64,000 bases of DNA, taken from positions 1-64,000 of IMG/VR virus record IMGVR_UViG_3300005200_000008. One strand, given 5' to 3'. Each line of letters opens with the position of its first letter. Position 1 is the first letter of the stretch. Position numbers and translations under genes: made by a program. Below, in pieces: positions 385-56,976 of this stretch. The notes beneath the pieces are model-generated. The model saw nothing but the letters and a program-made list of their open reading frames with translations, searched no databases and had not been told where the DNA came from. The DNA is from a virus. Taxonomy: Duplodnaviria > Caudoviricetes.

Positions 385-405
385 TTACATTTTCCTCCGT
401 CAATA

Positions 406-413
406 AAATAGGC
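406..413 (-). promoter_or_regulatory. Putative late promoter element GCCTATTT
   Basis: Recurrent motif upstream of virion genes. Confidence 0.55.
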
Positions 414-420
414 AGATAAA

Positions 421-1176: not shown

Positions 1177-1180
1177 ATAA

Positions 1181-1188
1181 TAATAGGC
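1181..1188 (-). promoter_or_regulatory. Putative late promoter element GCCTATTA
   Basis: GCCTATTA-ttat-ATG(1176), no RBS in between. Confidence 0.55.
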
Positions 1189-1197
1189 TGGAATTCT

Positions 1198-1497
1198 TTA
1201 TTTCTTGGTAAGGGAAGGAATCGCGCTGGTAAGCCGCCTGAGCGCCCTACGCAGGGCTTGAATATCCCCGACATCCAGAGAGGAAGCCTGATCAACCATG
1301 AGTTCGGAACGGTATAATTCGGCATCTTTCCAGAACATTAAAAATGTTCTGTCAGCTTTTTGGTTAGTAACAAGCAGGCGTTTCATGTCATAACAAATGA
1401 CCGTATAGAATTCGCCCATTTTCATATTTTGCAATGAATACCGCAGGCGCATTTTTCTAAGGCGCACGATTACCGGTTTTATTTTACTTTGAATCAT
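1198..1497 (-). CDS. Hypothetical protein
   Basis: ORF track start 1515 overlaps the CGGAAGT motif (1505-1511); next ATG 1497 preferred. Confidence 0.6.
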   Translation of the reverse strand: MIQSKIKPVIVRLRKMRLRYSLQNMKMGEFYTVICYDMKRLLVTNQKADRTFLMFWKDAELYRSELMVDQASSLDVGDIQALRRALRRLTSAIPSLTKK

Positions 1498-1517
1498 AAT
1501 AATAACTTCCGGCAAAT

Positions 1518-1550
1518 AAAAGGGCTTCCCGATTCCGAGAAGCCCTTTTT
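1518..1550 (-). terminator. Intrinsic terminator after major capsid gene
   Basis: AAAAGGGCTTC...GAAGCCCTTTT stem with T-tract. Confidence 0.8.
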
Positions 1551-1561
1551 GTTTTCTGAAA

Positions 1562-3064: not shown

Positions 3065-3104
3065 TCATTAGTTCCACGGCCAATTCCCTACAGGCGCAGG
3101 GATA

Positions 3105-4667
3105 TTACAAATACCCCTTCGGTATTCTCAGGTCAGGCTCCGGTATTTGGTTATCCTGACGCTTCTCTGAAATAGGCGTGCTTAAATCAGAAACTGCCCC
3201 GGTTTCTTCCAAGCGTTTTGCTTCCTCGTGGAATTGCATTTTTTGAAGCACAAGCAGTTGCGCTTCAAAGAGGGTTCTCTTTTTCAGGAATTCGTCTTTG
3301 TATTCCATGAATTCGGGATGCAGGCTGCTGACGGTATCCCTGAAAAACTTGACCACTTCCGGATTCGCGTTTTTGATTTTTTCCTGTTCGGCTTCAAACG
3401 CCCTGCGTTTTTCATCCAAAGTTTTCTGTTCGTTAAGTTTCCGCTGCCTGCGTTCTGACAGTTCCCTCGCGGTGTTTGCCTTTGTTTCCGCGTTTTTATT
3501 CTCTTGAAGTATCTTTTGAAGTTTTTCAGCCAGTTTTTTGTTGTAGCCTACGGCTTTCGCCAGCAATTTCTTCTGCTCCGCGTAACCGGCAAGCACTTTC
3601 TTTGTATATTTCTGCAAGGCAACGTAATCTTTGTAGGGAACGCTGTTCTGCCGATAGGAAGAAGCTTCGGTTAAAATCTTTTCCGTATTTTTTGAAAATT
3701 CGGAAGCCGAATCGAGGGTGTCGAGGGCTTCTTTAAGTTTGGCAGAAAGGTCGGCGTTTTCCTTGGTCAGCCGGGTAATTTCTTCCTGGTTTTCGGTAAG
3801 CGTGGCGGCGGTCACGTTTATTTTTTCATTCAGCGCCTCATACTGGGTGCCTTTCTCCATTTGCTCCTTGATGGCGGTATCGCAGGAAGCGACAATTTCC
3901 TCCAGACGGGGCTTTAACGTACCCAATTCGGATTCGTCGTACATTTCAAGGAGTTCTTTAGCCTTGCCGCGCCGCTCTTCGGGATTAGCAATACGGGAAA
4001 TTGATTCGCATACTTGCTGTAAAGTCGTTTCAACAATTTTTTTGATTTTGCGTTCGCTTAATTCCATCATTTTATTTTCCTTCCCTCCGGATTGTTCTTC
4101 TGTATGCTGAACAGCCTCGGTGACTTTATCATCAAGGCGGCCGAATACTTCGTAACTCGGTTCCATGACCCAATCGGCAACACGCTCAAGCTCGAATGAA
4201 TCAGGATCAACCGTGAAACCGTCGGATAAAAATTCGCCGAAGCCGGAGGAAGACAGCCCAATCTCGCCCCCCGCTTTCAGCACCCCTAAAGCCGTCCTTC
4301 CCCATTCGTTGTCAATGATGTAAAAGTCAGCTTCGACAAATTCTTTGCTTTCGTCGTAATTGACGTTTCTGGAAACCGCCCAAATGTTTTTCGGGTCTCC
4401 CGGGTCGTCTTCGGGCGGGTGGTTCATCAGCGCCAGCGTGGACTTGCCCCGCATACGCTCGATAACCAAATCCCAAAGTTTATAATCGTAAACCCTGCCG
4501 TTAAGGTTTTTTCTTCCCGGTCTGGTAAACTTGAACCTGTAAACGGCTAACGCTTCGTAGAGTTTTCCCTCATGCAAAACAGATTCTTTGAGGGAACCCT
4601 GCGTTTGGGATACTTTTTGATAAAACTGTGGGGATATGAGAACATTCTCAACCAGCCGTCGTTTCAT
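3105..4667 (-). CDS. Prohead protease (T4 gp21-like) fused to coiled-coil scaffold/core domain
   Basis: KNLNGRVY, LMNHPP, IGLSSSGFG, ADWVMEPS motifs in first ~175 aa; long K/E-rich coiled coil after. Confidence 0.85.
   Translation of the reverse strand: MKRRLVENVLISPQFYQKVSQTQGSLKESVLHEGKLYEALAVYRFKFTRPGRKNLNGRVYDYKLWDLVIERMRGKSTLALMNHPPEDDPGDPKNIWAVSRNVNYDESKEFVEADFYIIDNEWGRTALGVLKAGGEIGLSSSGFGEFLSDGFTVDPDSFELERVADWVMEPSYEVFGRLDDKVTEAVQHTEEQSGGKENKMMELSERKIKKIVETTLQQVCESISRIANPEERRGKAKELLEMYDESELGTLKPRLEEIVASCDTAIKEQMEKGTQYEALNEKINVTAATLTENQEEITRLTKENADLSAKLKEALDTLDSASEFSKNTEKILTEASSYRQNSVPYKDYVALQKYTKKVLAGYAEQKKLLAKAVGYNKKLAEKLQKILQENKNAETKANTARELSERRQRKLNEQKTLDEKRRAFEAEQEKIKNANPEVVKFFRDTVSSLHPEFMEYKDEFLKKRTLFEAQLLVLQKMQFHEEAKRLEETGAVSDLSTPISEKRQDNQIPEPDLRIPKGYL
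3170..3177 (-). promoter_or_regulatory. Putative late promoter for major capsid gene (inside protease 3' end)
   Basis: GCCTATTT about 110 nt upstream of 3064. Confidence 0.5.
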
Positions 4668-4671
4668 AACA

Positions 4672-4679
4672 AAATAGGC
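4672..4679 (-). promoter_or_regulatory. Putative late promoter element GCCTATTT
   Basis: GCCTATTT-tgtt-ATG(4667). Confidence 0.6.
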
Positions 4680-4701
4680 AAGAGGATTTAAAAATTACTT
4701 T

Positions 4702-6555
4702 TTATCTATCCCCTTCCTCCCTGAGCCTCTTTTCTTTTTGTTCTTTTTCCATACTCCAGAACATTTCTTTCAACGGCTTTGACTTAATGCCGGTTTCAAG
4801 GGCTAATTCCAATACCTGCTTCTGCATACGCATATCGTTCGTATTAATAAGGGAAGATCGGAAATGCTTGCCGTCTGCAACGCCTTCGGGGAAAAATTTG
4901 GAACTGGTTCTTATAATTTGCTCTCTAAATTGCTCCCTGACTTGGGGGGTATACCTGTTGGAAATCTTCTCGAACAGGCTGCCGTCAGTTTCGTCGTCTT
5001 CGGTTTCCTCCGGTTTTTCAGCTTCTGCGCGTTTCCGTTCCGCTTCAATGCCGTCTATCCACTTCACCAATCTTTCCTGCGGTATTGATGTCATAGTAGA
5101 AAATGCGTCTTTTATAATGTCAGAAGGTATATTTTCAACACCGATTAAGCTTTTCAGAGTATCTAGCGCCGAATTAGCCATATCGATTTCGTCTTTTCGT
5201 CTCTGCTGCCTTTCGGAGGTTTCTTCAATTACGGGGAATTCCATGATGAGTTCAAACGGCGTATCCCACCCTTGAAATTTATTCACGATGGTAAGGTGCA
5301 TTTTTATTTTAAGCGTAAGTTCTTTTATAAAATCAGACTGGTCGGCGTAAACGCCCCTGCCGAACGGTTTGAACTGCTGTAAAAGAGCTTGCCCGCTGTT
5401 GCCCCAACCGCCGGCATCGACAATAAGATACCCCTTCGGCACGCGGGTTGACATGATTTCGTTATCGCGCAGGTACTCTATGTCGGCGATTTTATCAAGG
5501 TCAATATCGCTTGATTTTTGATCAAATTCGGCAAGCTCCTTCGGCATAACCACTCTGGAACCGATAGAGGGCAGTTCTTTGCTGCCCCCAAAGAGGCCGG
5601 CGTTGTCAAGTTGCTCGACAAATTCCTCAACGGCTTCCCACTGCTCGGTCGGCGTCATGCCGGGCGAAGTCGCCACGCCGTAAAAATCGCGGGGAAACGA
5701 AGCAGCGCGGGCAACCTGCATGAGCGTCTGCGCCGCCATAAGTTGCTTGAATGTCGGCAGCGCGTTTATAAACCTGCTTCTCCCCCAGGGAGAGAATTCG
5801 CGCTGCATGGAAAAAGTCCTAAAATGGGTGATACTCCACGGCGGCACTACCACGCCGGAAGATAATTCAAACCCGAAAAGAAAAGTTTTAAAATATGAAA
5901 CGGGGTCTTCGGCGTTTTGGATAAGGTTCTGCATCAGCCGGTCAAGTTTCTGCCCCCGGGTGCCATGCTCATAACCGTTAGTGATATTATATTTTTCAAG
6001 GATTATCGAGGGGTTGAATTCCAGCCGGTCTCGAATATCCCAAACGGTAAGCGGGGTTACGCTTACAATGCCCTCTTTTTCGTCAATCTCGTTGCCGTCA
6101 AAAGCGTCGCCGTATACAACTTTGTTGTAAATGATTTCCCTGACGTTCTGTTGGGTATAACCCCACTGTTCAAGAAGGCTTTCAATGTAATTTTGAATTT
6201 CAGACTTCGCGTTTACCCGTATCGGCTGACCGCTATACTCGCACTGCACCGCCTCGTCAGCGTACAAATCAGCCGCCATTTGGATTACGGTGTCGTTTTT
6301 AATCATTAAATCAAGGTCAAGATAACGAAGCTCCCGATTTTTGAGGGTATCGCTGGTATCGATGGTTTCTCTAAGATACCAACTCCACAACTTTTGCAGG
6401 GTAGTATATTCGCCCTTCGTATCCCTTCCAATTCTGCTTTTACGTTCTTTACCGGCTTCGGGGGGAATGGGCTGCATACGGCCGTAGGAATTAACCCCGA
6501 CGTTATGCAAGTTCAGTAATTTAGATAAGAAGTTCTGATTGCTTTTATCAGCCAT
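4702..6555 (-). CDS. Portal protein, T4 gp20-like
   Basis: 617 aa; RYLDLDLM...IQMAADLYADEA, ITHFR, PWGRSRF, RVPKGYL motifs; portal-protease-MCP order. Confidence 0.85.
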   Translation of the reverse strand: MADKSNQNFLSKLLNLHNVGVNSYGRMQPIPPEAGKERKSRIGRDTKGEYTTLQKLWSWYLRETIDTSDTLKNRELRYLDLDLMIKNDTVIQMAADLYADEAVQCEYSGQPIRVNAKSEIQNYIESLLEQWGYTQQNVREIIYNKVVYGDAFDGNEIDEKEGIVSVTPLTVWDIRDRLEFNPSIILEKYNITNGYEHGTRGQKLDRLMQNLIQNAEDPVSYFKTFLFGFELSSGVVVPPWSITHFRTFSMQREFSPWGRSRFINALPTFKQLMAAQTLMQVARAASFPRDFYGVATSPGMTPTEQWEAVEEFVEQLDNAGLFGGSKELPSIGSRVVMPKELAEFDQKSSDIDLDKIADIEYLRDNEIMSTRVPKGYLIVDAGGWGNSGQALLQQFKPFGRGVYADQSDFIKELTLKIKMHLTIVNKFQGWDTPFELIMEFPVIEETSERQQRRKDEIDMANSALDTLKSLIGVENIPSDIIKDAFSTMTSIPQERLVKWIDGIEAERKRAEAEKPEETEDDETDGSLFEKISNRYTPQVREQFREQIIRTSSKFFPEGVADGKHFRSSLINTNDMRMQKQVLELALETGIKSKPLKEMFWSMEKEQKEKRLREEGDR

Positions 6556-6598
6556 ACCTTAATAGGTACAGACTGAAAAAACCTATAATTTTTATATA

Positions 6599-6832
6599 TT
6601 ATTCTCTTGAAATTGGGCTATCCCAAACAACCTTGACATCTGCTGAGTTAATAAACGGTTCAAAACCGCCCCCAGTCATTTTTCCAAGATTTCCACAGAG
6701 GCATTGAACTTCTTGATGAACGCTATAATCATCTTCAAGTTCTATATCATATTTTTTTCCGCATTTAGGGCATGGGTTTACATATATGGCTTTCATATAA
6801 AACATTATCATTATGTTACCTCTTTTCTTCAA
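6599..6832 (-). CDS. Hypothetical small Zn-finger protein
   Basis: CPKC...CLC; AT-rich. Confidence 0.5.
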   Translation of the reverse strand: MKKRGNIMIMFYMKAIYVNPCPKCGKKYDIELEDDYSVHQEVQCLCGNLGKMTGGGFEPFINSADVKVVWDSPISRE

Positions 6833-7110
6833 ATTATTTGTGTTGGTTTATAATGCGAGCATTTATAATCAAAGCCGTCACAAGGAAATGGTCGGGCAAT
6901 TTCATTACAGTTACTATGTCCTAAATAATTAATACATAAAAATAAATTACCTAAAGACTTAAAACCATCATTTTTTTCGTATGTTTTATTCTGTACATTT
7001 TGTACATATTGTACATATCCTATAAGATTTTTTGCTGTTTTGGGATCACATTCTATTCTAACATCAAGAAAATTGTTATTATATTCCATACGTTTAATTA
7101 CTGGCTTCAT
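6829..7110 (-). CDS. Hypothetical protein
   Basis: 93 aa, Cys-rich C-terminus, 4-nt overlap with neighbour. Confidence 0.55.
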   Translation of the reverse strand: MKPVIKRMEYNNNFLDVRIECDPKTAKNLIGYVQYVQNVQNKTYEKNDGFKSLGNLFLCINYLGHSNCNEIARPFPCDGFDYKCSHYKPTQII

Positions 7111-7265
7111 ATTTATTATTTTGTCACCTTGTTTCTACCACAAAATCAATAACCACAATATCTTTCGTCATTTCCAGGATTTTTCTATCATCGGCGCCCA
7201 TGTGTCGCAGGTATGATAAATAATTTTCATAGTCAGTACGGAGTACCGGTATTCTGGGAGTATAA

Positions 7266-7514
7266 TTATCCGGGGACATTTCGTTGTGCCTTCAAAAACT
7301 CAATAACCGATCCATTTACTATTATCGGCATTCCGAATTTTCCGTCACTGCCATGTTGAAAATTCTCTATCCACGCTCCGTCAGGCATTAGAATAAACTG
7401 GCAATAATCCAGTCTGTTTTTCATTCGTTCTTCTATGCAGTTTTTACCTATACAGCAGGTAGGACAGCCTCCTCCGCTCATTTTTGATTCAAAACAATCA
7501 ATTTTGATTTCCAC
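7266..7514 (-). CDS. Hypothetical protein
   Basis: 82 aa, GGAGG RBS, GTG start. Confidence 0.55.
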   Translation of the reverse strand: MEIKIDCFESKMSGGGCPTCCIGKNCIEERMKNRLDYCQFILMPDGAWIENFQHGSDGKFGMPIIVNGSVIEFLKAQRNVPG

Positions 7515-7575
7515 AATACCTCCAAATGTCCCATATTAGATAAAACAATCTACCCTTTCCATAACCCCTATAGAA

Positions 7576-7860
7576 TCAATCAAACCGACCACGACAATAA
7601 TTCGGGCAATCTGGATAATCTTCGCAATCCTTACATCGCATTTTAGCAGACCGTTGACGAATTTTCAATATATTAAATATATTAGTTCCTACCAAAATAA
7701 GATTTAAACCCATCACAATCCATAAAGAATTGATAATTGACCATAGAACTAACAATAATGCCGATAAACAAACAATCATGCGCGTAATTATATATCTATG
7801 ATACATGAATGATAAAACAATGCCGCAAACGCCAAGTCCGAATAACAACATCGCTTTCAT
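7576..7860 (-). CDS. Hypothetical membrane protein
   Basis: Hydrophobic segments; ATG 7860 with GGAAGG upstream; Cys-rich tail. Confidence 0.55.
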   Translation of the reverse strand: MKAMLLFGLGVCGIVLSFMYHRYIITRMIVCLSALLLVLWSIINSLWIVMGLNLILVGTNIFNILKIRQRSAKMRCKDCEDYPDCPNYCRGRFD

Positions 7861-7861
7861 A

Positions 7862-8038
7862 TTACCTTCCCTTAAACCCCTTACTAATAAGTTCTTTTTC
7901 AATTTTATCAAGGATTTTTCTAACATGCTTAATCAGTGCGTAATCATCCATAGAATAAAACACGCCCCAGATCCAAATGCCGGGGGCGTTATCCCTGCCT
8001 TGACCGTAAGACCAGTTATTTTTAACGTTTTTCGTCAT
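7862..8038 (-). CDS. Hypothetical 58-aa protein (not in ORF track)
   Basis: MTKNVKNNWSYGQGRDNAPGIWIWGVF...; ATGA overlap with recA stop. Confidence 0.5.
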   Translation of the reverse strand: MTKNVKNNWSYGQGRDNAPGIWIWGVFYSMDDYALIKHVRKILDKIEKELISKGFKGR

Positions 8039-9237
8039 CTTGATTTTGCCTTATCGTCAACACTCTCGTCATGTTCGGTATCGGTGTTGCCGGCAACAAA
8101 TTCGGATTCAAGTTTTTCCTGTTCGGCGATTACCTTTTCCATATCCTCCTCGCTGTCAACTTTTTCAGTGATAACGGTTTTCTTCGCCACCATTGCCACT
8201 TGAAGCCGTTTTTTCATATCTTCGTACAGGTCTGGAGTGGCTTTCAGATACTCCATAACTTCGCCGGAACCCTGTACTTTTTTCTGCGTACCGTCAAGAT
8301 TGGTAATGGTATACCATCCCGCCTTTGCTTTTTCGATAAACCCGTATTTCGCCCAGGCAGCGACATACTCATTCTCCAACTGATAGCCTTCGCCGAATAT
8401 AATCGACATATCGGCGGTACGGAACGGCGTTGCCAATTTATTCTTCTGCGTTTTCAAAATACAGTGGATGCCTTTCAGACCCTCGGCATTTTTTGCCTCG
8501 CCGATCCAGTCTCCCGATTTGGTCTGTATGCGGATAGATGCGTAAAACTTTAACGCATTACCGCCGGAAGTCGTAGTCGGCACTACGCCGGTAGGACTGA
8601 AACCGCCGATTTTGGTTCGTATTTGATTGGAGAAAACTATAGTCGCGGAATCGGATTTCATTTGCGAATGAAGTTTCCTGCAAGCCTGCGACATGAGTCT
8701 GGCTTGAAGCGCCACATGAGCGTCGCCTATATCGCCGTCAATTTCCGCTTGGGGGACAAGCGCGGCAACCGAATCAACCAGAATACAGTCAACCTGCCCG
8801 GATTCAAGCAGGTCTTCCAGAATGTTGAGCGCCTGCTCGCCGCTATCGGGTTGGGAAAAAATTATTTTGCTCATATCAAGCCCGAATGATTTTGCATACA
8901 CGGGATCGTATTGGTGTTCGGCATCGATAAACGCGACCACGCCGTAACGGTTCTTGTCTTCAAACCAGTGTTTCTGCACTTGGGCGGCAAGGTACGTCAG
9001 CAGGGAAGTTTTACCGCTGCTCTCAGGGCCGAAAACTTCAATCATCCTGCCCCTGGGGATTCCCTTCCCCAGAAGTTCGGTTATGGAGAACGAGTCTACC
9101 GGTATCCACTCGACAACCACCTGGCTGTCGCCGAACAGCGACAACGCTTCGGCGCCGTATTTTTTCTGCATGGTTTGAATCAGACTGTCTAACGACTTGC
9201 TTGTCTTGTCGGTTGTCTTTGTTTCTTTTTCTTTCAT
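8035..9237 (-). CDS. recA: RecA recombinase
   Basis: GPESSGKT Walker A, FIDAEH, VDSVAALVP, FSNQIR, TTSGGNALKFYASIR. Confidence 0.97.
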   Translation of the reverse strand: MKEKETKTTDKTSKSLDSLIQTMQKKYGAEALSLFGDSQVVVEWIPVDSFSITELLGKGIPRGRMIEVFGPESSGKTSLLTYLAAQVQKHWFEDKNRYGVVAFIDAEHQYDPVYAKSFGLDMSKIIFSQPDSGEQALNILEDLLESGQVDCILVDSVAALVPQAEIDGDIGDAHVALQARLMSQACRKLHSQMKSDSATIVFSNQIRTKIGGFSPTGVVPTTTSGGNALKFYASIRIQTKSGDWIGEAKNAEGLKGIHCILKTQKNKLATPFRTADMSIIFGEGYQLENEYVAAWAKYGFIEKAKAGWYTITNLDGTQKKVQGSGEVMEYLKATPDLYEDMKKRLQVAMVAKKTVITEKVDSEEDMEKVIAEQEKLESEFVAGNTDTEHDESVDDKAKSR

Positions 9238-22419: not shown

Positions 22420-24288
22420 TCATGCCGCCATACCGCCGTTAAATAATTTCTTAAGCTCGACAACCGTCATCTGCTGAGGTCGAGACCATACGCGTTCATT
22501 GAAATCGTTTTTATCCAAAAGGCCGTTATACAAAGTTTCTTCAAGAGTATTGCCGAACAATAAGAATTCGGCGAACACCGGCTCAACCGTGCCGATACGG
22601 TGGCTCCTTTTTACCGTCTGGTACATGACATCCTGCCTCAAAGGAAAGTCCCAATAAATGTTACGGGTTACCGCCGTCAGGTTTACCGAAGTATTAAGCG
22701 CGAAATAATTAATAATGGCTAACGGGCAGCCGCTGTACAAAAACTCCGCGCAGAAACGCCCGTTGCGCTCCGCTACGGATTCGTTTTTCTCCATTTCAGT
22801 ACCGCCGTGCAATTTCATGGGCTTGTACTTCGCAAACTTTTCAGCAAGTGTGTCGATAATATAAGGATGCCCAGACCAGAGGATTACTTTTTTCTTCTGC
22901 TCCAAAATATACTTTTCAAGAAGGGAAACCGCTACTTCGTATTTTCCGTTATCTTCAATGTCCCATTTCGCGGCTTCCTTAACAATCAAATCGTTCAACT
23001 GATCAACCTTGGACAGGGAACCCCTCGACAACAGTCCAGGATCGTGTAAAGCCATACAAAGAAGCATGAACTTTGTTTTCAATTTGCTCGGATATACCGC
23101 GCCGTCAGATTCCTTCAAAGTGTAAAGAACATAGTCGGCGACAGCCCTGTACAATTCGTTCTGCTTTTTAGGGATAAGGCACCGAACCGGCCTCATAATG
23201 AGTTCGGGCAAATCAAGGTTGCCCTCCATTTTCTCCCGGGACACCAAGTAAGCCGTGCTGTCCATGAACTCTTTTACTTTGTCATCAAAGTAGTAATTTA
23301 TCCCATACGCGCTGAATTTATTGCCGACATCGGCTATACGGGTAATGTACTGGTAATAATCGTCGGGAACGGCGCCTGAGTGCAGGAAATACAGTTGCGT
23401 CCACAAATCGGCGGCATACTTCGGCGCCGGAGTGCCGGTCAGAATATAGCGGTAATCAAAATAATCTTTTACACGGTAGAGTATTTTCCATGTCTTTGAC
23501 TGGTGGTTCTTAAACGCCGCGCTTTCGTCGCATATAACGGCAAGTTTCGGCCCCAACTTTTCAAACGGTATATAATTCTTGACAATCCTCTTGCCCGTAA
23601 ACCTATGGCCTGTTTTTTCCTTATAGTAATCGTCATAGAGCATTATCAGGTTTCGGTATGTCATAATAATGACTTTGATATTCGGGTCGTCAAACGGTCT
23701 TCGGTTGAACACGCTGCATATATAAATTTCGTCTTCTTTCAAGCCGAAAGAATTAAACCGCAGGAACTCGCATTTAAGATTCAGCACCCCTTCGGGAGGA
23801 CAGAGAATTACAATCTTATTAACAGATCCTCGATAAATTAAATGATTCATTATTGTAATAACTACATAGGACTTTCCACAGCCCATCTCCCAAAACAAAG
23901 CTAACCGATTTTGTGATATACCCCTCAATATCCCCCGTCGCTGATAATCGCCCTTATACTCGGACTTTACCAAATCAGGATTAATACTGGTTCGGAAGCG
24001 TAAGAACTTGTCATTATGAGGGCCGACAAAATTTTGCTTATTGACAGTTTGTATCCAGTTCGGTACAATGATTTTAGGTTCGATTTCTTTTATCTTATTG
24101 ACGCACTCTTGGGCGTTCCGTTCGTCAACCAGCCAAATCTTGTCTTCTACAAAGCCGTCTACAGTCTGTTCGTTATGCCGGAACCTGCCCCCGCAGATGC
24201 GTATGGCGTTTGCCAGTTCGTTGAATGAATTGCCATTGATGCGTACAAGCAGGCTGTTTCCCTGCCCACGAAAAAATACGGCTCCCAT
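22420..24288 (-). CDS. SNF2-like (SF2) helicase
   Basis: WEMGCGKS, ICDES, LTGTP, RSHRIG. Confidence 0.88.
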   Translation of the reverse strand: MGAVFFRGQGNSLLVRINGNSFNELANAIRICGGRFRHNEQTVDGFVEDKIWLVDERNAQECVNKIKEIEPKIIVPNWIQTVNKQNFVGPHNDKFLRFRTSINPDLVKSEYKGDYQRRGILRGISQNRLALFWEMGCGKSYVVITIMNHLIYRGSVNKIVILCPPEGVLNLKCEFLRFNSFGLKEDEIYICSVFNRRPFDDPNIKVIIMTYRNLIMLYDDYYKEKTGHRFTGKRIVKNYIPFEKLGPKLAVICDESAAFKNHQSKTWKILYRVKDYFDYRYILTGTPAPKYAADLWTQLYFLHSGAVPDDYYQYITRIADVGNKFSAYGINYYFDDKVKEFMDSTAYLVSREKMEGNLDLPELIMRPVRCLIPKKQNELYRAVADYVLYTLKESDGAVYPSKLKTKFMLLCMALHDPGLLSRGSLSKVDQLNDLIVKEAAKWDIEDNGKYEVAVSLLEKYILEQKKKVILWSGHPYIIDTLAEKFAKYKPMKLHGGTEMEKNESVAERNGRFCAEFLYSGCPLAIINYFALNTSVNLTAVTRNIYWDFPLRQDVMYQTVKRSHRIGTVEPVFAEFLLFGNTLEETLYNGLLDKNDFNERVWSRPQQMTVVELKKLFNGGMAA

Positions 24289-24295
24289 ATATAGG

Positions 24296-24322
24296 ACTTC
24301 CGATCTATTATCGTAAGAGCTT
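24296..24322 (-). promoter_or_regulatory. Bipartite phage promoter AAGCT-N15-CGGAAGT (leaderless helicase mRNA)
   Basis: CGGAAGTCCTATAT-ATG(24288). Confidence 0.7.
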
Positions 24323-38589: not shown

Positions 38590-39259
38590 TGAGTTTTACT
38601 CCCTGCCACATTGATTTAATATCATCGGGCTTTACGTTCATTTCAGAAAAAATATTGGAGAGAGCAATCGAAGAAAGGCTGGAACGGGGGCGGCGGCTAG
38701 AAGACTCTAATTGAATTCTGTCAAACGTATATTCGGTCAACAGTTCAAGCGCCCTTTTATGCAAATCGCGGTGCAGCAGGGCAACCTTATAATCTTTGGT
38801 ATAACGTTCAAGAACGTTAAATGATGCTTCGGTTATGAAATCATCCTCCGGCTTTTTAATAATACGAAGAAGCCGTCTTTGCAATTTTGTTTTTAATTCT
38901 TCCAATTCTTTCATTTTCTTTTCATACGGCGGTATCAAGCCCTCAATAACAAATCTTTTTAATTCGCTATCAAGCGGGTGTCCTTCCGGCACTTTGTCGG
39001 CTACTTCGTAAAAAATCGCAAACGCCAGATCTTTCGCCTCTTTATCAAAATCAATAGATGCGATGCCGTACAAATCGTAAGTGTCGCGCTGCTTTTTGTC
39101 AGACAGAATTTCAAACGCTTTCTTAATTTCGACAAAGACCTTGGAATCGCCGCTCTCTTTGTTGTCAGGATGATACTTCTTGGATAATACGCGGAAAGCG
39201 TTTTTTATCTGCTCCTTGGTGGCGGTTTCGTCTATTCCCAAAGTCTTATACGGGTTCAT
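38579..39259 (-). CDS. DnaJ-domain protein
   Basis: NPYKTLG...YHPD...EIKKAFEILSD..RDTYD. Confidence 0.9.
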   Translation of the reverse strand: MNPYKTLGIDETATKEQIKNAFRVLSKKYHPDNKESGDSKVFVEIKKAFEILSDKKQRDTYDLYGIASIDFDKEAKDLAFAIFYEVADKVPEGHPLDSELKRFVIEGLIPPYEKKMKELEELKTKLQRRLLRIIKKPEDDFITEASFNVLERYTKDYKVALLHRDLHKRALELLTEYTFDRIQLESSSRRPRSSLSSIALSNIFSEMNVKPDDIKSMWQGVKLNDN

Positions 39260-39266
39260 ATATAGG

Positions 39267-39293
39267 ACTTCCGGCTTTTACTTGTGAAAGCTC
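39267..39293 (-). promoter_or_regulatory. Bipartite phage promoter GAGCT-N15-CGGAAGT (leaderless J-domain mRNA)
   Basis: CGGAAGTCCTATAT-ATG(39259). Confidence 0.7.
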
Positions 39294-46144: not shown

Positions 46145-46739
46145 GAACTGTAAAAAAATCTATGCTTCGCGCCGCCGCCCTTTCCTAAATTTTAATTATT
46201 AAATTTAAAGACAGATCTAAAATAAATTTATTTTAAAACAGAAGCTATAATTTATTTTTTTAATCTATACTATGAGGAAACGGTGAAGTGTACACACCTA
46301 GCCCATAGGATGAACCGTTTTTTCGACGTTCATCGCTCTGAGCAGGCGTGCCAGAGGTTCCATGAGTCTAACGGAGCCGTGCGACACTGGTTACCCGTTG
46401 TGCGGGATTTACTTGCTTTGGCGATTGAGCAGACCCAACGCTTTCATCCCTCGCCCACTTTGGCCGGTAACCATCCAAACCTTTGCCAAGACCATCCCAA
46501 GCAGGGTATCCCGGTGTGGTCTTTTAAGCCGAACTGCACCCACGGGGGCTAGACCTTCGATGCAGAACGCGGGATTTCTCCCGTTATCCCTGAGAAATGG
46601 GATAAACTTATACTAATGATTTCCGGGTGAATCAGACTCGTGATAGATATTTGGGAAAAAATTTTTATTTTTTTTCTGTGTTAGCTGCAATTCTACCAAC
46701 CTTCCTAAAAAGTTTCACGGGAAACCGGAAGTTATTAGT

Positions 46740-48455
46740 ATGGGCGAAACATCAAATAAAATTCAAGTGCTGAAGAACGACGGGCAGGATTTTGAGTGGT
46801 ATCCGACTACCCCCGAAATTATGAAAGCTATGAAAGATGATTTATGGAAGTATCTTCAAAGCCATGAAAGGGATTATGATGCCCGAAGAAAAGAAAACAT
46901 TGAAATACGCACCGATTCCGAATATGTCGGAAAGCGGGAAAAAATAACGCATAGGCTGGAGATTGGCTCATTTTTGGATATCGGCGCCGGCGACGGGCGC
47001 GTCCTCGATTTGTTTGACGCAGACAAAAAATACGGCATTGAAATCGCAAGGGCGCAGGCAGACGACCTTATTCGCAGGGGCATTTTTATAATCGGGCGAA
47101 ATTATTGGGACGTGTCATTATGCGAACAGTATTTTTCCCTTATATACAGCAACCCTCCCTTTTCGCAGTTTGAGCGTTGGGTAAATAAGATTCTTGTCGA
47201 TTGTAATTTTTGCGTTCTTTACCTTGTAATGCCGGTGCGCTGGCAAAACAAAGAAGAAATTATGAGGGAAATGAAACGCTATGAAGCGACCATTGTCGGC
47301 GAATTTGATTTTTCAAATGCCGACAGGGAAGCGCGTGGAAGGGTAAATCTTGTTCGTGTAAACGCGCCGTGGGAAAAAATTGAAGACGGCGAAGGCGGGA
47401 AACGCAGGTATGAGTATTACCAGCAGACAGTCGAAGATGCCTTTGAACGTTTTGTAAAAGAACAAATTGCCGACTTTGAAGAAAAGCCGGATTTAAGTTG
47501 GGAGGAAGAACGAGAACAGGGGCTTGCCCTGAAACAAACGCCTATTGACCAACTTATATCTGATTATGACCGTGAAAGGGAAAATCTTGGCAGCGCGTTT
47601 AAGGCTATTGGAAAACTTGACCCGCAGATTATAAAACTTCTGGGGCAGGATAAGAAATCCATGCTGGAAATAATAAAAAAATCCATTGAAGGATTGAAAT
47701 CAAAATATTGGAGAGCGGCTTTTGGCAAACTTGAACCGGTGCGTAAACGGATGACGCATGAAACCCGCAGAAGAATATTTCAGAACATTGAAGAATTCCG
47801 CACTCTCGATTTTAACGCCGATAACGTTTATTCGATTGTAATTTGGATTATCAATAATTCCAATATCGGCATACTAGATCAGATTGGCGAAGTTTTTGAC
47901 AAGATGACAACGCCCGAATATATAGAGGCTTACGTGTCAAACAAACACTGGGTAAAGAGCGATTGGCGAAATGCTAAGGATGCCAGGGATAATTGGAGAT
48001 ACAGTAAACTGCCGTCGCGTTGGAAATTGGGGCTTGATTACCGCATTGTTGTTCAGGCTCATAACCAACACACATACGATTCAATGGGCAGATATACTGT
48101 TGTTGATGATTTTATTGTTATCTGCGGTAATCTCGGATTTCCTATCGCTGATAGAGAACCGAGATATGACATACATCAATCTGAGCAAAGATTTTTTACC
48201 GAAGACGGTGAATTGGCGTTTACAATGAGATATTATACCGGCAACCATAACGCGCATTTAAAAATAAACAAAAAACTTTTAATGAAATTCAACATTGAAG
48301 TTGCGAAAATACGCAAATGGATGTCTGCTCCTGACGATGTTGTTGAAGAATACTCTGTTCCGAAAGATGAAGCGGTCAGGTTGTGGAACAGCGGTATTGC
48401 CCTTTTGGGAAATAATGATGTAAATATGCTGGAATACAAGGGTGAAACTAAATGA
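46740..48455 (+). CDS. DUF4942-type class I SAM-dependent DNA methyltransferase-like protein
   Basis: QDFEWYPT, FLDIGAGDG, YSNPPF; CCGGAAGTTATT 3 nt before ATG. Confidence 0.75.
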   Translation: MGETSNKIQVLKNDGQDFEWYPTTPEIMKAMKDDLWKYLQSHERDYDARRKENIEIRTDSEYVGKREKITHRLEIGSFLDIGAGDGRVLDLFDADKKYGIEIARAQADDLIRRGIFIIGRNYWDVSLCEQYFSLIYSNPPFSQFERWVNKILVDCNFCVLYLVMPVRWQNKEEIMREMKRYEATIVGEFDFSNADREARGRVNLVRVNAPWEKIEDGEGGKRRYEYYQQTVEDAFERFVKEQIADFEEKPDLSWEEEREQGLALKQTPIDQLISDYDRERENLGSAFKAIGKLDPQIIKLLGQDKKSMLEIIKKSIEGLKSKYWRAAFGKLEPVRKRMTHETRRRIFQNIEEFRTLDFNADNVYSIVIWIINNSNIGILDQIGEVFDKMTTPEYIEAYVSNKHWVKSDWRNAKDARDNWRYSKLPSRWKLGLDYRIVVQAHNQHTYDSMGRYTVVDDFIVICGNLGFPIADREPRYDIHQSEQRFFTEDGELAFTMRYYTGNHNAHLKINKKLLMKFNIEVAKIRKWMSAPDDVVEEYSVPKDEAVRLWNSGIALLGNNDVNMLEYKGETK

Positions 48456-49964: not shown

Positions 49965-50464
49965 TTATGACCAAAAATTTGTATCGCGGAAAACCGGTAG
50001 CCGGGACTGTTTCCGAGCCTTGGGTATACGGCGCTTATTACAGACACGAGCCTCCCCTTATTGCTTTCGGAGAACAGAAGGAAAAAATTAAGCCGTTTAT
50101 TGTCAGAACGGCGTTTGCCGACTGGAATATGCCGAGGCAAGCCGAGCATGTTCCAATCGTGGAAGGAAGCCAGGGGCAGTTTACAGGACTTTTTGCGGTT
50201 GAAAGCCATCGCGGAGAAAAAGAGGAAGATTTGATGATCTTCGAGGGCGATATTCTTGATTTTGAAGACAACCATAAAACCCGTTTGGTAATTTTTGATC
50301 AAGGCAGTTTTCAAGTACTTTGGAGCGGTGGTTTTTCGCCGTTAAGGTATACGCTTACACGCGATAACCTCTCTCTGAGGGCAAAAATTATCGGAGATAA
50401 AACTTATAATTTTGATTTAATTAAAGGCATCAAACTGTATGAAAGTTTTCTCGGAACGACTTAA
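49961..50464 (+). CDS. YopX-like protein
   Basis: YRGK...WVYG...GQFTG...IFEGDIL...KIIG. Confidence 0.7.
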   Translation: MIMTKNLYRGKPVAGTVSEPWVYGAYYRHEPPLIAFGEQKEKIKPFIVRTAFADWNMPRQAEHVPIVEGSQGQFTGLFAVESHRGEKEEDLMIFEGDILDFEDNHKTRLVIFDQGSFQVLWSGGFSPLRYTLTRDNLSLRAKIIGDKTYNFDLIKGIKLYESFLGTT

Positions 50465-50768
50465 ATTAGCGCGGCAGTTACGGCATATGACACAATCGGA
50501 GTTGGAGAAAAAGGCGGGGATATTCCGCACTTCGGTTGCCCAGTTTGAATTGGGAAGCCGGGCGCCGTCGTTGAATTCGTTCGCAAAATTGGCTAAGGCT
50601 TTGAATGTAAGCGCAGACTACTTTCTCGGCATTAGCGACGTTCCCGAAGCCGTTACGTCGCATACCGTAATGGCGAAGGCGATCAATACACTGTCTCTTA
50701 ACGATCTTGAAATTATGGAAGGACTGGTAGATATTCTGCTGAAGCGTAACGCGGGGCGTGTTATCTGA
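50439..50768 (+). CDS. XRE-family HTH transcriptional regulator
   Basis: FSERLKLARQLRHMTQSELE...FELGSRAPS....LAKALNVSADYFLG. Confidence 0.9.
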   Translation: MKVFSERLKLARQLRHMTQSELEKKAGIFRTSVAQFELGSRAPSLNSFAKLAKALNVSADYFLGISDVPEAVTSHTVMAKAINTLSLNDLEIMEGLVDILLKRNAGRVI

Positions 50769-52850: not shown

Positions 52851-52879
52851 AAAAGCCCTGCGGCGTGCAGGGCTTTTTT
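52851..52879. terminator. Bidirectional intrinsic terminator
   Basis: AAAAGCCCTGC-GGCGT-GCAGGGCTTTT between convergent genes. Confidence 0.85.
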
Positions 52880-52902: not shown

Positions 52903-53001
52903 TTATTTCTTTTTTGCCGTTGTTTTCTTTGCTGCGGTTTTTTTGGCTGCGGGCTTTTTAGCCGCAGGTTTCTTTTCGGCGGTTTTCTTTGCTGCTGGCA
53001 T
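52903..53001 (-). CDS. 32-aa histone H1/HC2-like basic peptide (not in ORF track)
   Basis: MPAAKKTAEKKPAAKKPAAKKTAAKKTTAKKK; AAGGAG RBS. Confidence 0.8.
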   Translation of the reverse strand: MPAAKKTAEKKPAAKKPAAKKTAAKKTTAKKK

Positions 53002-53068
53002 TTAATCTCTCCTTTTAATAAAAGATGTTATTATTATCGGCTTATTATTTGAATTTATTTAATAGGGA

Positions 53069-53470
53069 CTATGCTGTGGGAAGATTTGATAAGACGGAAC
53101 TGTCTAAAGGGAAGGATTTTGTCAATCCTTCTACGATATTCAATGCCACTTTTTTTCCTTCGTCGTTGAGGTTTTCCGCTGCGTAGGCAATTTGAATCGA
53201 TATACTTGAAATTTTTGACATATTTCGATCTTTCCCGTCTATGAAGTATTCCATAGATATGCCGAGATAGTTGCATATGTCATAAGCCTCTTTAATGTTA
53301 GGAAGTGTATCGTTCTGTACTTGTTTGTTGAGGGTTTGCTGTATTATGCCTACGTTTCTGGCTAATTCTGTTAGAGTTATCTTTCTTTTTTTAATTTCGT
53401 CATCTATTCGTTGCCAACATTCAAGCATATCTTCGTATTTTTTACTCGGTTTTTCAGCTTTTTTGGGCAT
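53069..53470 (-). CDS. XRE/CI-like HTH repressor
   Basis: ITLTELARNVGIIQQTLNKQ...PNIKEAYDICNYLGISMEYFIDG; divergent from sigma gene. Confidence 0.85.
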   Translation of the reverse strand: MPKKAEKPSKKYEDMLECWQRIDDEIKKRKITLTELARNVGIIQQTLNKQVQNDTLPNIKEAYDICNYLGISMEYFIDGKDRNMSKISSISIQIAYAAENLNDEGKKVALNIVEGLTKSFPLDSSVLSNLPTA

Positions 53471-53475
53471 AATTC

Positions 53476-53504
53476 ATTTTCGACTGGTTTCAAAAAAAAT
53501 ACAA
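53476..53504 (-). promoter_or_regulatory. PRM-like promoter for repressor (leaderless)
   Basis: TTGTAT-N17-GAAAAT, ATG 5 nt later; -35 overlaps operator O3. Confidence 0.55.
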
Positions 53505-53516
53505 CTTTTTTCGTAA
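53499..53516. promoter_or_regulatory. Degenerate operator O3
   Basis: ATACAAC-TTTT-TTCGTAA (one perfect half-site). Confidence 0.5.
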
Positions 53517-53522
53517 AAGCTC

Positions 53523-53552
53523 TTGACAGATACAACCGATGTTGTATATAAT
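53523..53552 (+). promoter_or_regulatory. Consensus sigma70 promoter (PR-like) for phage sigma gene
   Basis: TTGACA-N18-TATAAT. Confidence 0.85.
53530..53547. promoter_or_regulatory. Operator O2
   Basis: Perfect ATACAAC-CGAT-GTTGTAT between -35 and -10. Confidence 0.85.
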
Positions 53553-53559
53553 GAGATAT

Positions 53560-53577
53560 ATACAACGAAAGTTGTAT
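53560..53577. promoter_or_regulatory. Operator O1
   Basis: Perfect ATACAAC-GAAA-GTTGTAT at predicted TSS. Confidence 0.85.
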
Positions 53578-53724
53578 GGCATTGAATGGCTTAAAAGGGC
53601 TGGAAGACTTTTAAGCCGGTTAAACGGCGGCTCCGAGGCGTCTTCCAGCGCTAAGGAGCATTTTTTATGGGAATCGCAGGAAGCCGCAGGCTGCCTGAAA
53701 TTATATTCCAATGAGGTGTGTGAA

Positions 53725-54387
53725 ATGGAAAAGGTAGGATCAAACCAAGTAGCCCAAAGTCAGCCAGAGACTGAATTCTCCATTGTGTGCCGCGCCAAAA
53801 ACGGCGACCAGGACGCTGTTGAATGGATATGGCGCAAGTACAGGAAACTCATGGTCGGCATGATCGGCAAGTACTGGTGGTATCACCGACTTTCCGAAGG
53901 GGAAATGGAAAGCGAAGCAACTATGGCTATGCTACACAAACTTGAGATATTTAAGCCTGAGAGGGTTAAGAAATCTCCCGAAGAATGGGAGTTTAAGTAT
54001 ATGCTTATCAACGCGGCGTACCATTGCCGGAGCCGTCTCAAAACGGCGGCAAAAAGGAAACAAGAAGAAGACGGCGAATCTTTTGAGGAAATCGAGGAGT
54101 ATTCGCATGATAGAACAATGTTGAAGGATATGGTTGTAAACAACGAACACCAATATTATGTTTATAACCCCGAAGACATTGCAATCCGCAGCATGGACGA
54201 AACGCCGGAAGAAAAAGCGGAGCGCTTAATGTCAATGTTGACGCCAATTCAAAAAACGTTGCTTGAACTCCGCAGGAAAGAAATGACGGTACAGGAAATA
54301 GCGGATCACATGGGTTGGGGTTTTACCAAAGTACGCAAACAGATTGTACAGGCCCGCGAACTCGCGCATGTCGTTTTCGGGGTGTAG
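53725..54387 (+). CDS. Phage RNA polymerase sigma factor (sigma70 regions 2 and 4)
   Basis: AKNGDQDAVEWIWRKYRKLM..(r2); LTPIQKTLLELRRKEMTVQEIADHMG..TKVRKQIVQAR (r4); GAGGTG RBS before 53725. Confidence 0.85.
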   Translation: MEKVGSNQVAQSQPETEFSIVCRAKNGDQDAVEWIWRKYRKLMVGMIGKYWWYHRLSEGEMESEATMAMLHKLEIFKPERVKKSPEEWEFKYMLINAAYHCRSRLKTAAKRKQEEDGESFEEIEEYSHDRTMLKDMVVNNEHQYYVYNPEDIAIRSMDETPEEKAERLMSMLTPIQKTLLELRRKEMTVQEIADHMGWGFTKVRKQIVQARELAHVVFGV

Positions 54388-54389: not shown

Positions 54390-55385
54390 ATGAACGGAAA
54401 AAAAGCCGCAATCTTTCATATAGACCTTGACGGTTTGGGGTGTGCCGTTCTCGAAAAACTTTATCACAAACAACTTGGTTTTGATGAAGTTTATTACCTT
54501 GATTACGGGTGGGAAGAAGATTTGGAAGTGGTCGGCAAACTGTCGCAGTATGCGGAATTGGTGTTTGCCGATATGTCGTGTTCCGAAATGCAATTTGACT
54601 GGTGGAAGACGACGGAAATGGCGGTTACTATTTATGACCACCACGAATCCGCAAAACCGCTTCAAGACAAGCCTGGTTGTACTATCGATGAAACAAGATG
54701 TGGTACTAAAATATTTTGGGACGAGTATGTACTTCCGCGCATTGGGCGCTACCGCCCTATTGTAAAAGATTTTATTGATTTAGTTCAAACGTATGATCTT
54801 TGGCAACTGGATGATCCGTTATGGCCGAAGGCGCTTGATTTGAACAGGGTACTGTACAAATACGCCTGTTGGAATGCGGCTGAATTTGAAAACAAGCACG
54901 AACGCTTTTTCAACTCCATACTGCGAAAACTTATTAATGACAAAGAATTTTTATTCAACTCAACCGAACTGCGGTATATTGCGGAAAGCAAAGAGAAAGA
55001 GGAAGAAGCGTACCAGAGGGCTTTAAGCACTTTGAAGATACGGAAAGACCACTGGGGCAGAACGTTCGGCGTGTTTTTGGCATGGGGGAAAATATCCATA
55101 GTCGCAAGCCGTCTGCTGTATGAAACGCCGGGGATGCCGAAATTTGACTATGTTATTGCCGTGCAAGATTACAACAAAGAATACGGCAAACTTAGTATTC
55201 GCGCAAGGCGGGGCGGTGATTTTTATTGTACGGATTTGGGGCTGTTTAACGGCCACGTCGAAGCCTCCGGCTGCACTTTAACTCCCGATCAGGCTTTGCG
55301 CCTATATAATCAGGATGTTTGTTTTCGATACAAAAGGGAAATCAAAAATGAGGAAGACATTTTTATCGAAAGCGCAGCTGCCTGA
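54390..55385 (+). CDS. DHH-family phosphoesterase
   Basis: FHIDLDG, ADMS, YDHH, FNGH. Confidence 0.85.
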   Translation: MNGKKAAIFHIDLDGLGCAVLEKLYHKQLGFDEVYYLDYGWEEDLEVVGKLSQYAELVFADMSCSEMQFDWWKTTEMAVTIYDHHESAKPLQDKPGCTIDETRCGTKIFWDEYVLPRIGRYRPIVKDFIDLVQTYDLWQLDDPLWPKALDLNRVLYKYACWNAAEFENKHERFFNSILRKLINDKEFLFNSTELRYIAESKEKEEEAYQRALSTLKIRKDHWGRTFGVFLAWGKISIVASRLLYETPGMPKFDYVIAVQDYNKEYGKLSIRARRGGDFYCTDLGLFNGHVEASGCTLTPDQALRLYNQDVCFRYKREIKNEEDIFIESAAA

Positions 55386-55403: not shown

Positions 55404-55985
55404 ATGAAATTTAATACAAGTCCGATACCCAAGAGGGTTTTTAAGGGTATCTTTGAAATTATCGAGTATGTTAGGGAACTGACCGGCGAAAACGATCTTT
55501 CCGGTATACCAGATCGCATAAATCTTAAAGCAATTTCCATCGACCTTAAAGAATCGTGGGTTATTTTCTCGGCCTGTGCTGATGATAAAATGCCGGTTTA
55601 TATTCAAACTCTCGTAAAAAATAATAACGTCGTTCAGGGGTCTGTTCATTGCGGTAACGAAGGCGCGGAGCCGGTAAAAGGCGGGTTTTCGTTTGATATT
55701 TTTATAGATTTGTTCCGCGATGTTCGGCGAATTGAAGAATTCGTTGATACCGTTAAAGGTGCCGACGGCAGTGATATCCGGCAGGTTGTGATTGCGGTAT
55801 ATTTGAATAACGAAGATATGCGGATTACGATATTGAAAGAGGGAGAAGTAAAGGATGCTCCGGTAATCGAAGCGCCTGTTCAACCTGAAAATCCTGTCAT
55901 TGAAGAAACGCCCGACGAATCAGAAACTAATTCTGATAATTCAGATGATGAAAATGAAGATGACGAAAATCCCGCATGGCCGTAA
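55404..55985 (+). CDS. Hypothetical protein with acidic C-terminus
   Basis: 193 aa, GGAGG RBS. Confidence 0.7.
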   Translation: MKFNTSPIPKRVFKGIFEIIEYVRELTGENDLSGIPDRINLKAISIDLKESWVIFSACADDKMPVYIQTLVKNNNVVQGSVHCGNEGAEPVKGGFSFDIFIDLFRDVRRIEEFVDTVKGADGSDIRQVVIAVYLNNEDMRITILKEGEVKDAPVIEAPVQPENPVIEETPDESETNSDNSDDENEDDENPAWP

Positions 55986-56000
55986 AACAAGGATTACAAA

Positions 56001-56573
56001 TTAACTGTATTTTCTTAATATACAGTCTATCCATTCCGGTATTTCCTGCGGTAATTTGAATCTTTGCATTATCTCGGAAAAAGGTACTTGAAATAATTTT
56101 TGTTTTTGATTGCTGGTTAATGCGGTAAGAGTAAATAAAAAAGTAGTCCATTGCTTGTATTGGATGGGATTTTCCTGTTTTGCCAAAGCGTCAGTATATT
56201 CGTCTACAATATTTCTTATATTGATTCCCCACTGTTTTGTTTGAATTTTTTTAATTTTATTTTCAGCGAATAAACCGATAATAATATATTTTCCTTCTTT
56301 GTACTGATAAGGTCTGAGGTCAAAAGAATCTTTTCTGTACCGTTTGTGGTAATTTGGCAGGGTGTGGTCTGATATTCGTATGGTGTATGTTTTGTTTTTA
56401 ATACTGAATAAAATATACTTGGAATCCGATGAAGCGGTTTTGCTTTTCTTTACGGTACATATTACCGCGTATTTGTTTATAATGTCAACAAGGAATTTTG
56501 CCAGTTTGTCAATTTTCGATTTTCCGAGTTGTGCGGAATTGTTTATAGGCTTCATATACCGGCTTAACTCCAA
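56001..56573 (-). CDS. Hypothetical protein
   Basis: 190 aa, AT-rich; SKYILF...TIRISDH. Confidence 0.6.
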   Translation of the reverse strand: MELSRYMKPINNSAQLGKSKIDKLAKFLVDIINKYAVICTVKKSKTASSDSKYILFSIKNKTYTIRISDHTLPNYHKRYRKDSFDLRPYQYKEGKYIIIGLFAENKIKKIQTKQWGINIRNIVDEYTDALAKQENPIQYKQWTTFLFTLTALTSNQKQKLFQVPFSEIMQRFKLPQEIPEWIDCILRKYS

Positions 56574-56976
56574 AATGCAGATTTAGTTTCGGGAACGTCT
56601 CCTCTTTTACCCATCCGGCTTTGCTGAATTCGTGTGAAATTTTCAGCCTTATGTGGGCATCAGTCACGTATATGAAAGTTTTCCATTGGAATAACGGCGC
56701 CTTGATTTCGTACTCGTCAATGTATTGAGCTTTCAAAGTAGCAAGTTTTACGCCTGTTTCTTCGTAGAATTCCCTCCATGCCGTGTGCAGCGCGTTTTCT
56801 TTCGGTTCCGCACTCCCGCCTGGGAAAGTCCATAATCCTTTGCCCGGGTGGTATGCTCGTTTTCCAAGGAAAACGCTGAATGCCCCTTTGGGTTCTTCGC
56901 GGAATAACGCTATTCCCGCACCCTTATAGCCGATGCGTTCATAAAAAGATTGTAGTTCCTCATTAAATAGGATCAT
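56509..56976 (-). CDS. Nudix hydrolase
   Basis: GGSAEPKENALHTAWREFYEETG Nudix box. Confidence 0.9.
   Translation of the reverse strand: MILFNEELQSFYERIGYKGAGIALFREEPKGAFSVFLGKRAYHPGKGLWTFPGGSAEPKENALHTAWREFYEETGVKLATLKAQYIDEYEIKAPLFQWKTFIYVTDAHIRLKISHEFSKAGWVKEETFPKLNLHFGVKPVYEAYKQFRTTRKIEN

Follow-up and report, generated by a model that had tools for sequence, protein, structure and literature searches.

The locus considered here is located in the first 64 kb (hereafter, the window) of the 89,930-bp linear viral record IMGVR_UViG_3300005200_000008 from IMG/VR (Caudoviricetes; CheckV completeness 42%). It consists of a minus-strand gene for a predicted repressor of the XRE/CI type, a divergent plus-strand operon that starts with a gene for a predicted sigma factor, and an intergenic region that contains a host-type promoter facing the sigma gene (P-sigma), a candidate promoter of the repressor gene and three putative operators, O1, O2 and O3 (Table 1). 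Elsewhere, the record encodes a T4-type portal as well as, according to PHROG and Pfam matches, a myovirus-type tail sheath, a terminase and replication proteins resembling those of T4 (UvsX, helicase, clamp loader, primase and SbcCD). Genes for a DNA methyltransferase and RtcB were detected, too.

O1 and O2 are perfect copies of the same palindrome, and O3 combines one perfect and one degenerate half. All three sites, which had been described in an earlier note on this DNA as lying about 30 bp apart, are readily recovered, with center-to-center distances of 31 bp (O3-O2) and 30 bp (O2-O1), that is, near three helical turns. In O1 and O2, the inner 14 bp fit ACAA-N6-TTGT exactly, and the core of O3, ACAACTTTTTTCGT, deviates from it at a single position. 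In a search of the entire record, O1 and O2 are the only copies of the full palindrome with at most one mismatch, and sites with one or two mismatches are absent; about 6e-4 perfect palindromes per record are expected, as estimated from base composition. Sites with up to three mismatches are not rare overall (5 seen vs 2.67 expected). As to half-sites, 5 of the 18 in the record fall inside 53499-53577; a third half-site would occur in helical phase by chance with a probability of about 6e-4, and a half-site at any distance up to 60 bp to the left or right with a probability of about 0.017. Another exact ACAA-N6-TTGT core, ACAAGCCTGGTTGT, is present 1.1 kb downstream (54667-54680), within the gene for a DHH-phosphoesterase-like protein; because about 1.4 such cores are expected at random per 90 kb, it may be due to chance or represent a distal operator.

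P-sigma, previously noted as a consensus promoter that overlaps O2 and O1 and faces the sigma gene, matches the host consensus at 12 of 12 positions and is the only such match in the 90-kb record. O2 falls in its spacer, and O1 is located past the predicted transcription start near 53559.

Table 1. Features of the divergent locus and its flanks
Feature	Coordinates	Strand	Description
Repressor gene	53069..53470	-	133 aa; XRE/Cro-C1 helix-turn-helix (HTH) domain at about 20-80 and C-terminal two-helix domain at about 86-120
Candidate repressor promoter	53476..53504	-	-35 TTGTAT (53504..53499) inside O3, N17, -10 GAAAAT (53481..53476)
O3, weak operator	53499-53516		left half ATACAAC perfect; 3 mismatches in right half
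P-sigma promoter	53523..53552	+	TTGACA (53523-28)-N18-TATAAT (53547-52), 12/12
O2	53530-53547		perfect ATACAAC-N4-GTTGTAT, ATACAACCGATGTTGTAT; fills promoter spacer and first -10 base, about -29 to -12
O1	53560-53577		perfect ATACAAC-N4-GTTGTAT, ATACAACGAAAGTTGTAT; about +2 to +19 of predicted start
Sigma mRNA leader	53559..53724	+	about 165 nt; strong fold, z-score -3.79
Upstream open reading frame (uORF)	53668-53715	+	15 codons; AAGGAG Shine-Dalgarno; stop TGA overlaps sigma Shine-Dalgarno GAGGTG
Predicted sigma factor gene	53725..54387	+	220 aa; divergent, extracytoplasmic function (ECF)-like (sigma2 + sigma4)
DHH-phosphoesterase-like gene	54390..55385	+	second in sigma operon; 331 aa; phrog_4771, E 1.6e-11; 2-nt gap after sigma stop
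Third sigma-operon gene	55404..55985	+	193 aa, acidic tail; 18-nt gap; no family match
Lys/Ala-rich peptide gene	53001..52903	-	32 aa; downstream of repressor gene; own Shine-Dalgarno sequence
Terminator hairpin	52877..52851	-	downstream of repressor and 32-aa genes

The predicted repressor and sigma factor

The product of the minus-strand gene matches HTH_26 (E 1.3e-7, 32.2 bits with a cut-off of 22) and HTH_3 (E 2.6e-7, 31 bits with a cut-off of 23) in Pfam along with transcriptional repressor/regulator families in PHROG. The match between this protein and Phage_CI_repr (PF07022) does not reach E 0.01; this family is matched by 15 of 24 full-length relatives of the repressor (best E 7.9e-10). 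An exhaustive search yielded 259 relatives at E <=0.001, of which a subset, 115-135 aa long, align over the full length and share the C-terminal motif L-x-D-E-G-K-x-x-A-L; the only close homologue, P0008, shows 61% local identity in BLASTP. The self-cleaving Peptidase_S24 domain gave no match in the repressor in the Pfam search. When aligned by HMMER to the 434 repressor (1per_L), the protein places its QQ residues 44-45, which are conserved also in P0008, on Q28-Q29 that open the recognition helix; with E 0.14, the match is not significant alone, and it is best described as a resemblance of the HTH sequences, not as proof of kinship.

Modeling of the repressor as a homodimer gave a score of 0.55, compared with 0.08 for the best control, with an interface formed by residues 87-123; at least 93% of the contacts agreed among three runs and the predicted local distance difference test (pLDDT) values were at least 78. 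In the calibration of this score, the mark was reached by 20 of 30 solved homodimers and by one of 23 solved monomers. The model supports, rather than demonstrates, a homodimer of the kind that would fit a palindromic site; the mean pLDDT of the single-chain AlphaFold model is 46.2. The arrangement proposed in the earlier note, a repressor gene divergent from the sigma gene with operators on a consensus promoter, holds with respect to gene types, layout and sites, and binding of these sites by the repressor is what we infer.

It is very improbable that the palindromes are instead bound by some other factor, such as a host protein or the second HTH_3 protein encoded in the record (50439-50768), or that they act as an RNA 5' hairpin or a DNA structure, with the adjacent HTH gene being unrelated to them. 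O3 contains the -35 element of the adjacent repressor gene's own candidate promoter, the predicted symmetric dimer suits a palindrome, and the QQ-opening recognition helix suits an ACAA-type half-site, as it does in phage 434 (PMC1636474). O1 is indeed predicted to fold as a stable 5'-terminal hairpin of the sigma mRNA, but O2 and O3 are located upstream of the start site, so that a role in RNA would leave them unexplained. What such an alternative has in its favor, besides this hairpin and the existence of the second HTH_3 protein, is the occurrence of identical tandem palindromes beside unrelated small XRE genes in Clostridia.

These tandem copies of ATACAAC-N4-GTTGTAT are found directly 5' of genes for XRE proteins of 76-79 aa in three metagenome-assembled genomes of Clostridia, with centers 30-31 bp apart. 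The palindrome is also present in Kribbella, with centers 28 bp apart (all four loci: L004:2212-2259, L005:2014-2062, L007:4386-4434 and L006:865-910). The XRE proteins concerned show only generic HTH similarity to the repressor from the window, with 24% identity.

The plus-strand gene appears to encode a divergent group IV (ECF-like) sigma factor, as predicted from sequence and profile comparisons. The protein matches Sigma70_r4_2 in Pfam (28.1 bits with a cut-off of 25.7) and, over residues 33-212, TIGR02937 (sigma70-ECF; E 1.3e-6), and both models match six of the six family members; residues 13-81 additionally match phrog_351, annotated as 'RNA polymerase sigma factor' (E 8e-7). The family profile matches, across both domains, the PDB chains 6in7_B ('RNA polymerase sigma-H factor') and those of sigma-E, 1or7_A and 6jbq_F (E 9e-6), and aligns to region 2 of 6in7_B. 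Region 2 is divergent, given that Pfam Sigma70_r2 is not matched and that AlphaFold is confident for region 4 only (approximately residues 160-218; mean pLDDT of the whole model 56.1). In accord with the claim that the switch controls a sigma factor in the place of Cro, a cro gene is not the first one in the rightward operon, and the first long open reading frame (ORF), preceded only by the 15-codon uORF, is of the sigma type; its region 4 is firm, whereas the matches to region 2 are weaker.

This weakness of region 2, together with a TIGR02937 score that is below the curated cut-off, could be taken to imply that the protein is a sigma4-like HTH transcription factor rather than a functional sigma factor, in which case the switch would control an activator or an accessory operon. 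Such an interpretation seems improbable considering that ECF sigma models and structures are matched over the full length, across both domains, that phrog_351 matches residues 13-81 and that every member of the family matches TIGR02937. Furthermore, the record contains numerous promoter motifs that are not of the sigma70 type (see below) and no second sigma-like gene.

Only five homologues of the sigma protein were detected, with 56-61% identity. A metagenome scan for relatives of this protein yielded one locus, L003 (stretch 1-8681 of a 34.5-kb contig), which encodes the closest homologue (61%). Among the genome contigs scanned, no relative of the sigma protein was found; tblastn searches of GenBank phages with the sigma and repressor proteins gave no match for either; and queries of viral contigs with proteins and alignments for both, or with the double-operator pattern, retrieved no related locus.

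Phage promoter motifs and the proposed switch

The intergenic DNA of the record holds few sigma70-like promoters. De novo k-mer enrichment of the upstream regions revealed two phage-specific motifs, each invariably in the same orientation as the gene that follows. The first one, CGGAAGT followed by (C/T)(C/A)TTA..TAT, is present in about 22 copies in front of genes for replication as well as others; the second one, (G)CCTATT(T/A), is present in about 20 copies before virion, lysis and diversity-generating retroelement (DGR) genes. Neither motif precedes the repressor gene or the sigma gene.

At least 15 long ORFs that lack a Shine-Dalgarno sequence begin 7-8 nt past CGGAAGT or 4-8 nt past CCTATT(T/A), among them those for the helicase at 24288, the portal at 6555 and a 1076-aa protein at 76863; the stretches with starts of this type include 24288-24302, 39259-39273, 46726-46742, 4667-4678 and 6555-6566. 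Other ORFs, located 18-56 nt past a phage motif, do carry a Shine-Dalgarno sequence. Judging from these start regions, the phage seems to make wide use of leaderless mRNAs.

Against this background, the expression of the repressor gene can be considered. The divergent promoter TTGTAT-N17-GAAAAT with its -35 element in O3, as put forward in the earlier note, is present in the sequence but is weak: it matches the consensus at only 7 of 12 positions and was not called by the promoter scanner. Its -10 element is separated by 5 nt from the ATG at 53470, without a Shine-Dalgarno sequence, a geometry equal to that of the leaderless-type genes of this phage. Because so many long ORFs of the same phage begin 4-8 nt past a promoter motif in this manner, the leaderless repressor mRNA proposed earlier is plausible. 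The start at 53470 is supported by the conservation in P0008 of K10, Y12 and D14, which are encoded upstream of the next ATG. Given that neither phage-specific motif precedes the gene, it is probably transcribed by the host polymerase, as a maintenance repressor needs. A candidate explanation of this promoter as a degenerate promoter of the phage type is unlikely: CGAAAAT matches CGGAAGT at 5 of 7 positions and lacks an accompanying AGCT, and the spacing is too short by 2 nt.

The distribution of the promoters fits a cascade in which host sigma70 gives rise to the phage sigma factor, which in turn would serve the phage promoters. Of the two classes, a sigma factor with a sigma4 domain would more probably recognize the two-block CGGAAGT promoters; this assignment is a guess because the upstream element, (A/G)AGCT, is found 14-15 nt upstream in only 6-10 of the CGGAAGT motifs. 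Gating of the cascade by the repressor at P-sigma is supported indirectly, by the status of P-sigma as the sole perfect sigma70 promoter and by the location of most genes behind the two phage-specific motifs.

Taken together, these features suggest the following switch. The 133-aa XRE/CI-type protein would form a symmetric dimer joined via the C-terminal helices, which would bind O2 in the spacer of P-sigma and O1 at approximately +2 to +19. Occupied O1 and O2 would exclude the host RNA polymerase, so that the three-gene operon, with the sigma gene first, is kept off. The weaker O3, 31 bp upstream, overlaps the -35 element of the repressor's weak host-type promoter and could mediate negative autoregulation. 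The promoters likely read by the sigma factor are those of the (R)AGCT-N15-CGGAAGT form, at replication genes and other genes, and the CCTATTT-type promoters would drive the virion, lysis and DGR genes. Since the sigma factor likely reads the phage's own promoters, repression at P-sigma alone could hold the whole programme. We assign a probability of about 0.65 to this reading as a whole, that is, to a repressor dimer that, from O1 and O2, shuts off the sigma operon and thereby the phage programme.

Several points weigh against it. O3 is degenerate, the candidate repressor promoter is under the threshold of the promoter scanner, and the AGCT element accompanies a minority of the CGGAAGT motifs. 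The protein encoded at 53725..54387 is not matched by Pfam Sigma70_r2 and is below the curated cut-off of TIGR02937. Phage_integrase, Resolvase, ParB_N, AAA_31 (ParA) and rve (transposase) domains were not found in the 90-kb record, which is weak evidence given that the record is about 42% complete. Finally, XRE regulators are also early genes of virulent phages, e.g., TgrL of phiCbK (PMC10688885).

Known systems and the possible use of the switch

Phage 434 has two operator regions with three 14-bp sites each, in which the outer 4+4 bases are invariant but for one exception (reference ACAATNNNNATTGT; PMC1636474). The locus in the window resembles the 434 right operator (OR) with cI and Cro (PDB 2OR1, 1PER and 1RPE) in having three adjacent sites between divergent promoters, the core ACAA-N6-TTGT with one site off by one base, and an XRE HTH domain with a QQ-opening recognition helix (PMC1636474). 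Moreover, 434 dimers bind palindromes, and the window repressor is likewise predicted to dimerize. The differences are also substantial: the symmetric word in the window extends over 18 bp, with C and G at core positions 5 and 10; the centers are 30-31 bp apart; O1 is downstream of the start site and O2 is in the spacer; and the repressor has no S24-type C-terminal domain and no significant similarity to the 434 repressor.

The geometry shared with the lambda OR1-OR3/PR/PRM region includes divergent promoters roughly 90 bp apart and three graded operators, of which the weakest lies over the repressor's own promoter. The lambda cI mRNA is leaderless, so that a leaderless repressor mRNA is a possibility common to both systems. 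The lambda operators are spaced at roughly 23-24 bp, compared with 30-31 bp in the window, and the operator sequences differ. In the window, O3 rather than O2 covers the repressor -35 element, and O2, centered near -68 of the repressor promoter, is not placed for activation of the PRM type; Cro, N or Q logic and a RecA-cleavable domain are all missing. The earlier comparison to lambda geometry is therefore not sustained, considering the position of O1 past the start site, that of O2 in the spacer, and the spacing; the operator word and the recognition helix put the system nearer to 434 than to lambda.

The third relevant system is PBSX of Bacillus subtilis, in which Xre keeps the lysogenic state and Xpf, a sigma-like positive control factor of group IV with sigma2 and sigma4, turns on the late genes (PMC8347963, PMC10141391). 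Here, as in the window, the gene for an XRE-family repressor and an operon with a group IV sigma factor gene are oriented divergently (PMC8347963, PMC10141391). L003, the metagenomic locus with the closest sigma homologue, has just the operon layout of PBSX: about nine genes in the same direction, with the sigma gene at the end, start at a strong TTGACA...TATAAT promoter beside a divergent gene for an 81-aa HTH protein. A tyrosine integrase, an Abi-like gene and another HTH gene are found in the same stretch, which is probably a prophage or an integrative element with PBSX-like control. In contrast to PBSX-type elements and L003, where several genes precede the sigma gene, the sigma gene in the window is the first one, directly behind the operators. 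In addition, the proteins are not close relatives of those of PBSX, and the phage in the window differs by its T4-like replisome and its two classes of phage-specific promoters. The wiring of repressor to sigma factor is thus new as a combination of 434/lambda-type operators with PBSX-type Xre/Xpf control, the latter being already known.

In several virulent phages, an early, host-transcribed phage sigma factor redirects the polymerase to phage promoters, as proposed here for the window; such are gp28 followed by gp33/34 in SPO1 and gp55 in T4. The T4-like replication genes and the T4-type portal add to this similarity, whereas a dedicated repressor-operator clamp on the sigma gene is not known from the SPO1- and T4-type cascades.

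With respect to the use of the switch, there is about an even chance that the repressor acts in immunity or in maintaining lysogeny or a carrier state. The temperate or carrier lifestyle that was proposed earlier finds no direct support in the record, given the T4-like replisome and the failure to find integrase, resolvase, ParA, ParB or rve in the 90 kb. Somewhat less probable, and still a serious contender, is a timer in a strictly virulent phage, in which an early, host-transcribed HTH protein would act similarly to Cro and lower the activity of the strong early sigma promoter after a pulse, limiting sigma dosage; other uses share the small remainder of the probability. Such a timer is compatible with the T4-like replication set and the T4-type portal, with a repressor that is devoid of the S24 self-cleavage domain, and with the early XRE factors of the virulent phiCbK (PMC10688885); the missing lysogeny genes also point in this direction but carry little weight in a record that is 42% complete. 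In contrast, the repressor family is mostly of the CI type by Pfam, the nearest relative of the sigma factor resides in an integrase-bearing element, and a consensus promoter covered by two perfect operators seems designed to be shut off tightly and for a long time. The more specific notion of a large myovirus with a T4-type replisome that is temperate or persists as a carrier or plasmid prophage, with the entire lytic programme held by one 434-like repressor at one sigma promoter, is less likely than not. If true, it would represent a minimal 'one promoter, one sigma' lysogeny switch without Cro and without a RecA-cleavable repressor domain.

Should the repressor switch work as read, it would be a compact, portable control module in which a single repressor and a single consensus promoter are combined with an orthogonal sigma factor that has promoter words of its own, and would provide a handle on the life cycle of a group of uncultured phages. 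It would also join immunity logic of the CI/434 style directly to a sigma cascade, within a phage whose replication genes are T4-like; these two types of control are, as a rule, reported from separate kinds of phage. Even as a lytic timer only, the locus would clearly illustrate how the expression of an early phage sigma factor is limited to a pulse.

Beyond the switch itself, the sigma mRNA leader has several features of its own. It matched no family in Rfam, and its part at 53578-53724 can form two mutually exclusive hairpins, GGCTTAAAAG/CTTTTAAGCC and CTGGAAGAC/GTCTTCCAG. Directly before the sigma start codon, the sequences CCAATGAGG and GAAATG are common to the window and L003; in L003, CCAATGAGG ends a real upstream gene. 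Translational coupling or attenuation in this leader is possible. At the other end, the sigma operon is separated by 15 bp, without a terminator-like site (55985-56001), from convergent minus-strand genes (56573..56001 and a NUDIX gene, 56976..56509), and antisense read-through into the operon is possible. On the repressor side, a late-type CCTATTA motif directly adjoins the stop codon of the repressor gene (within 52903-53066).

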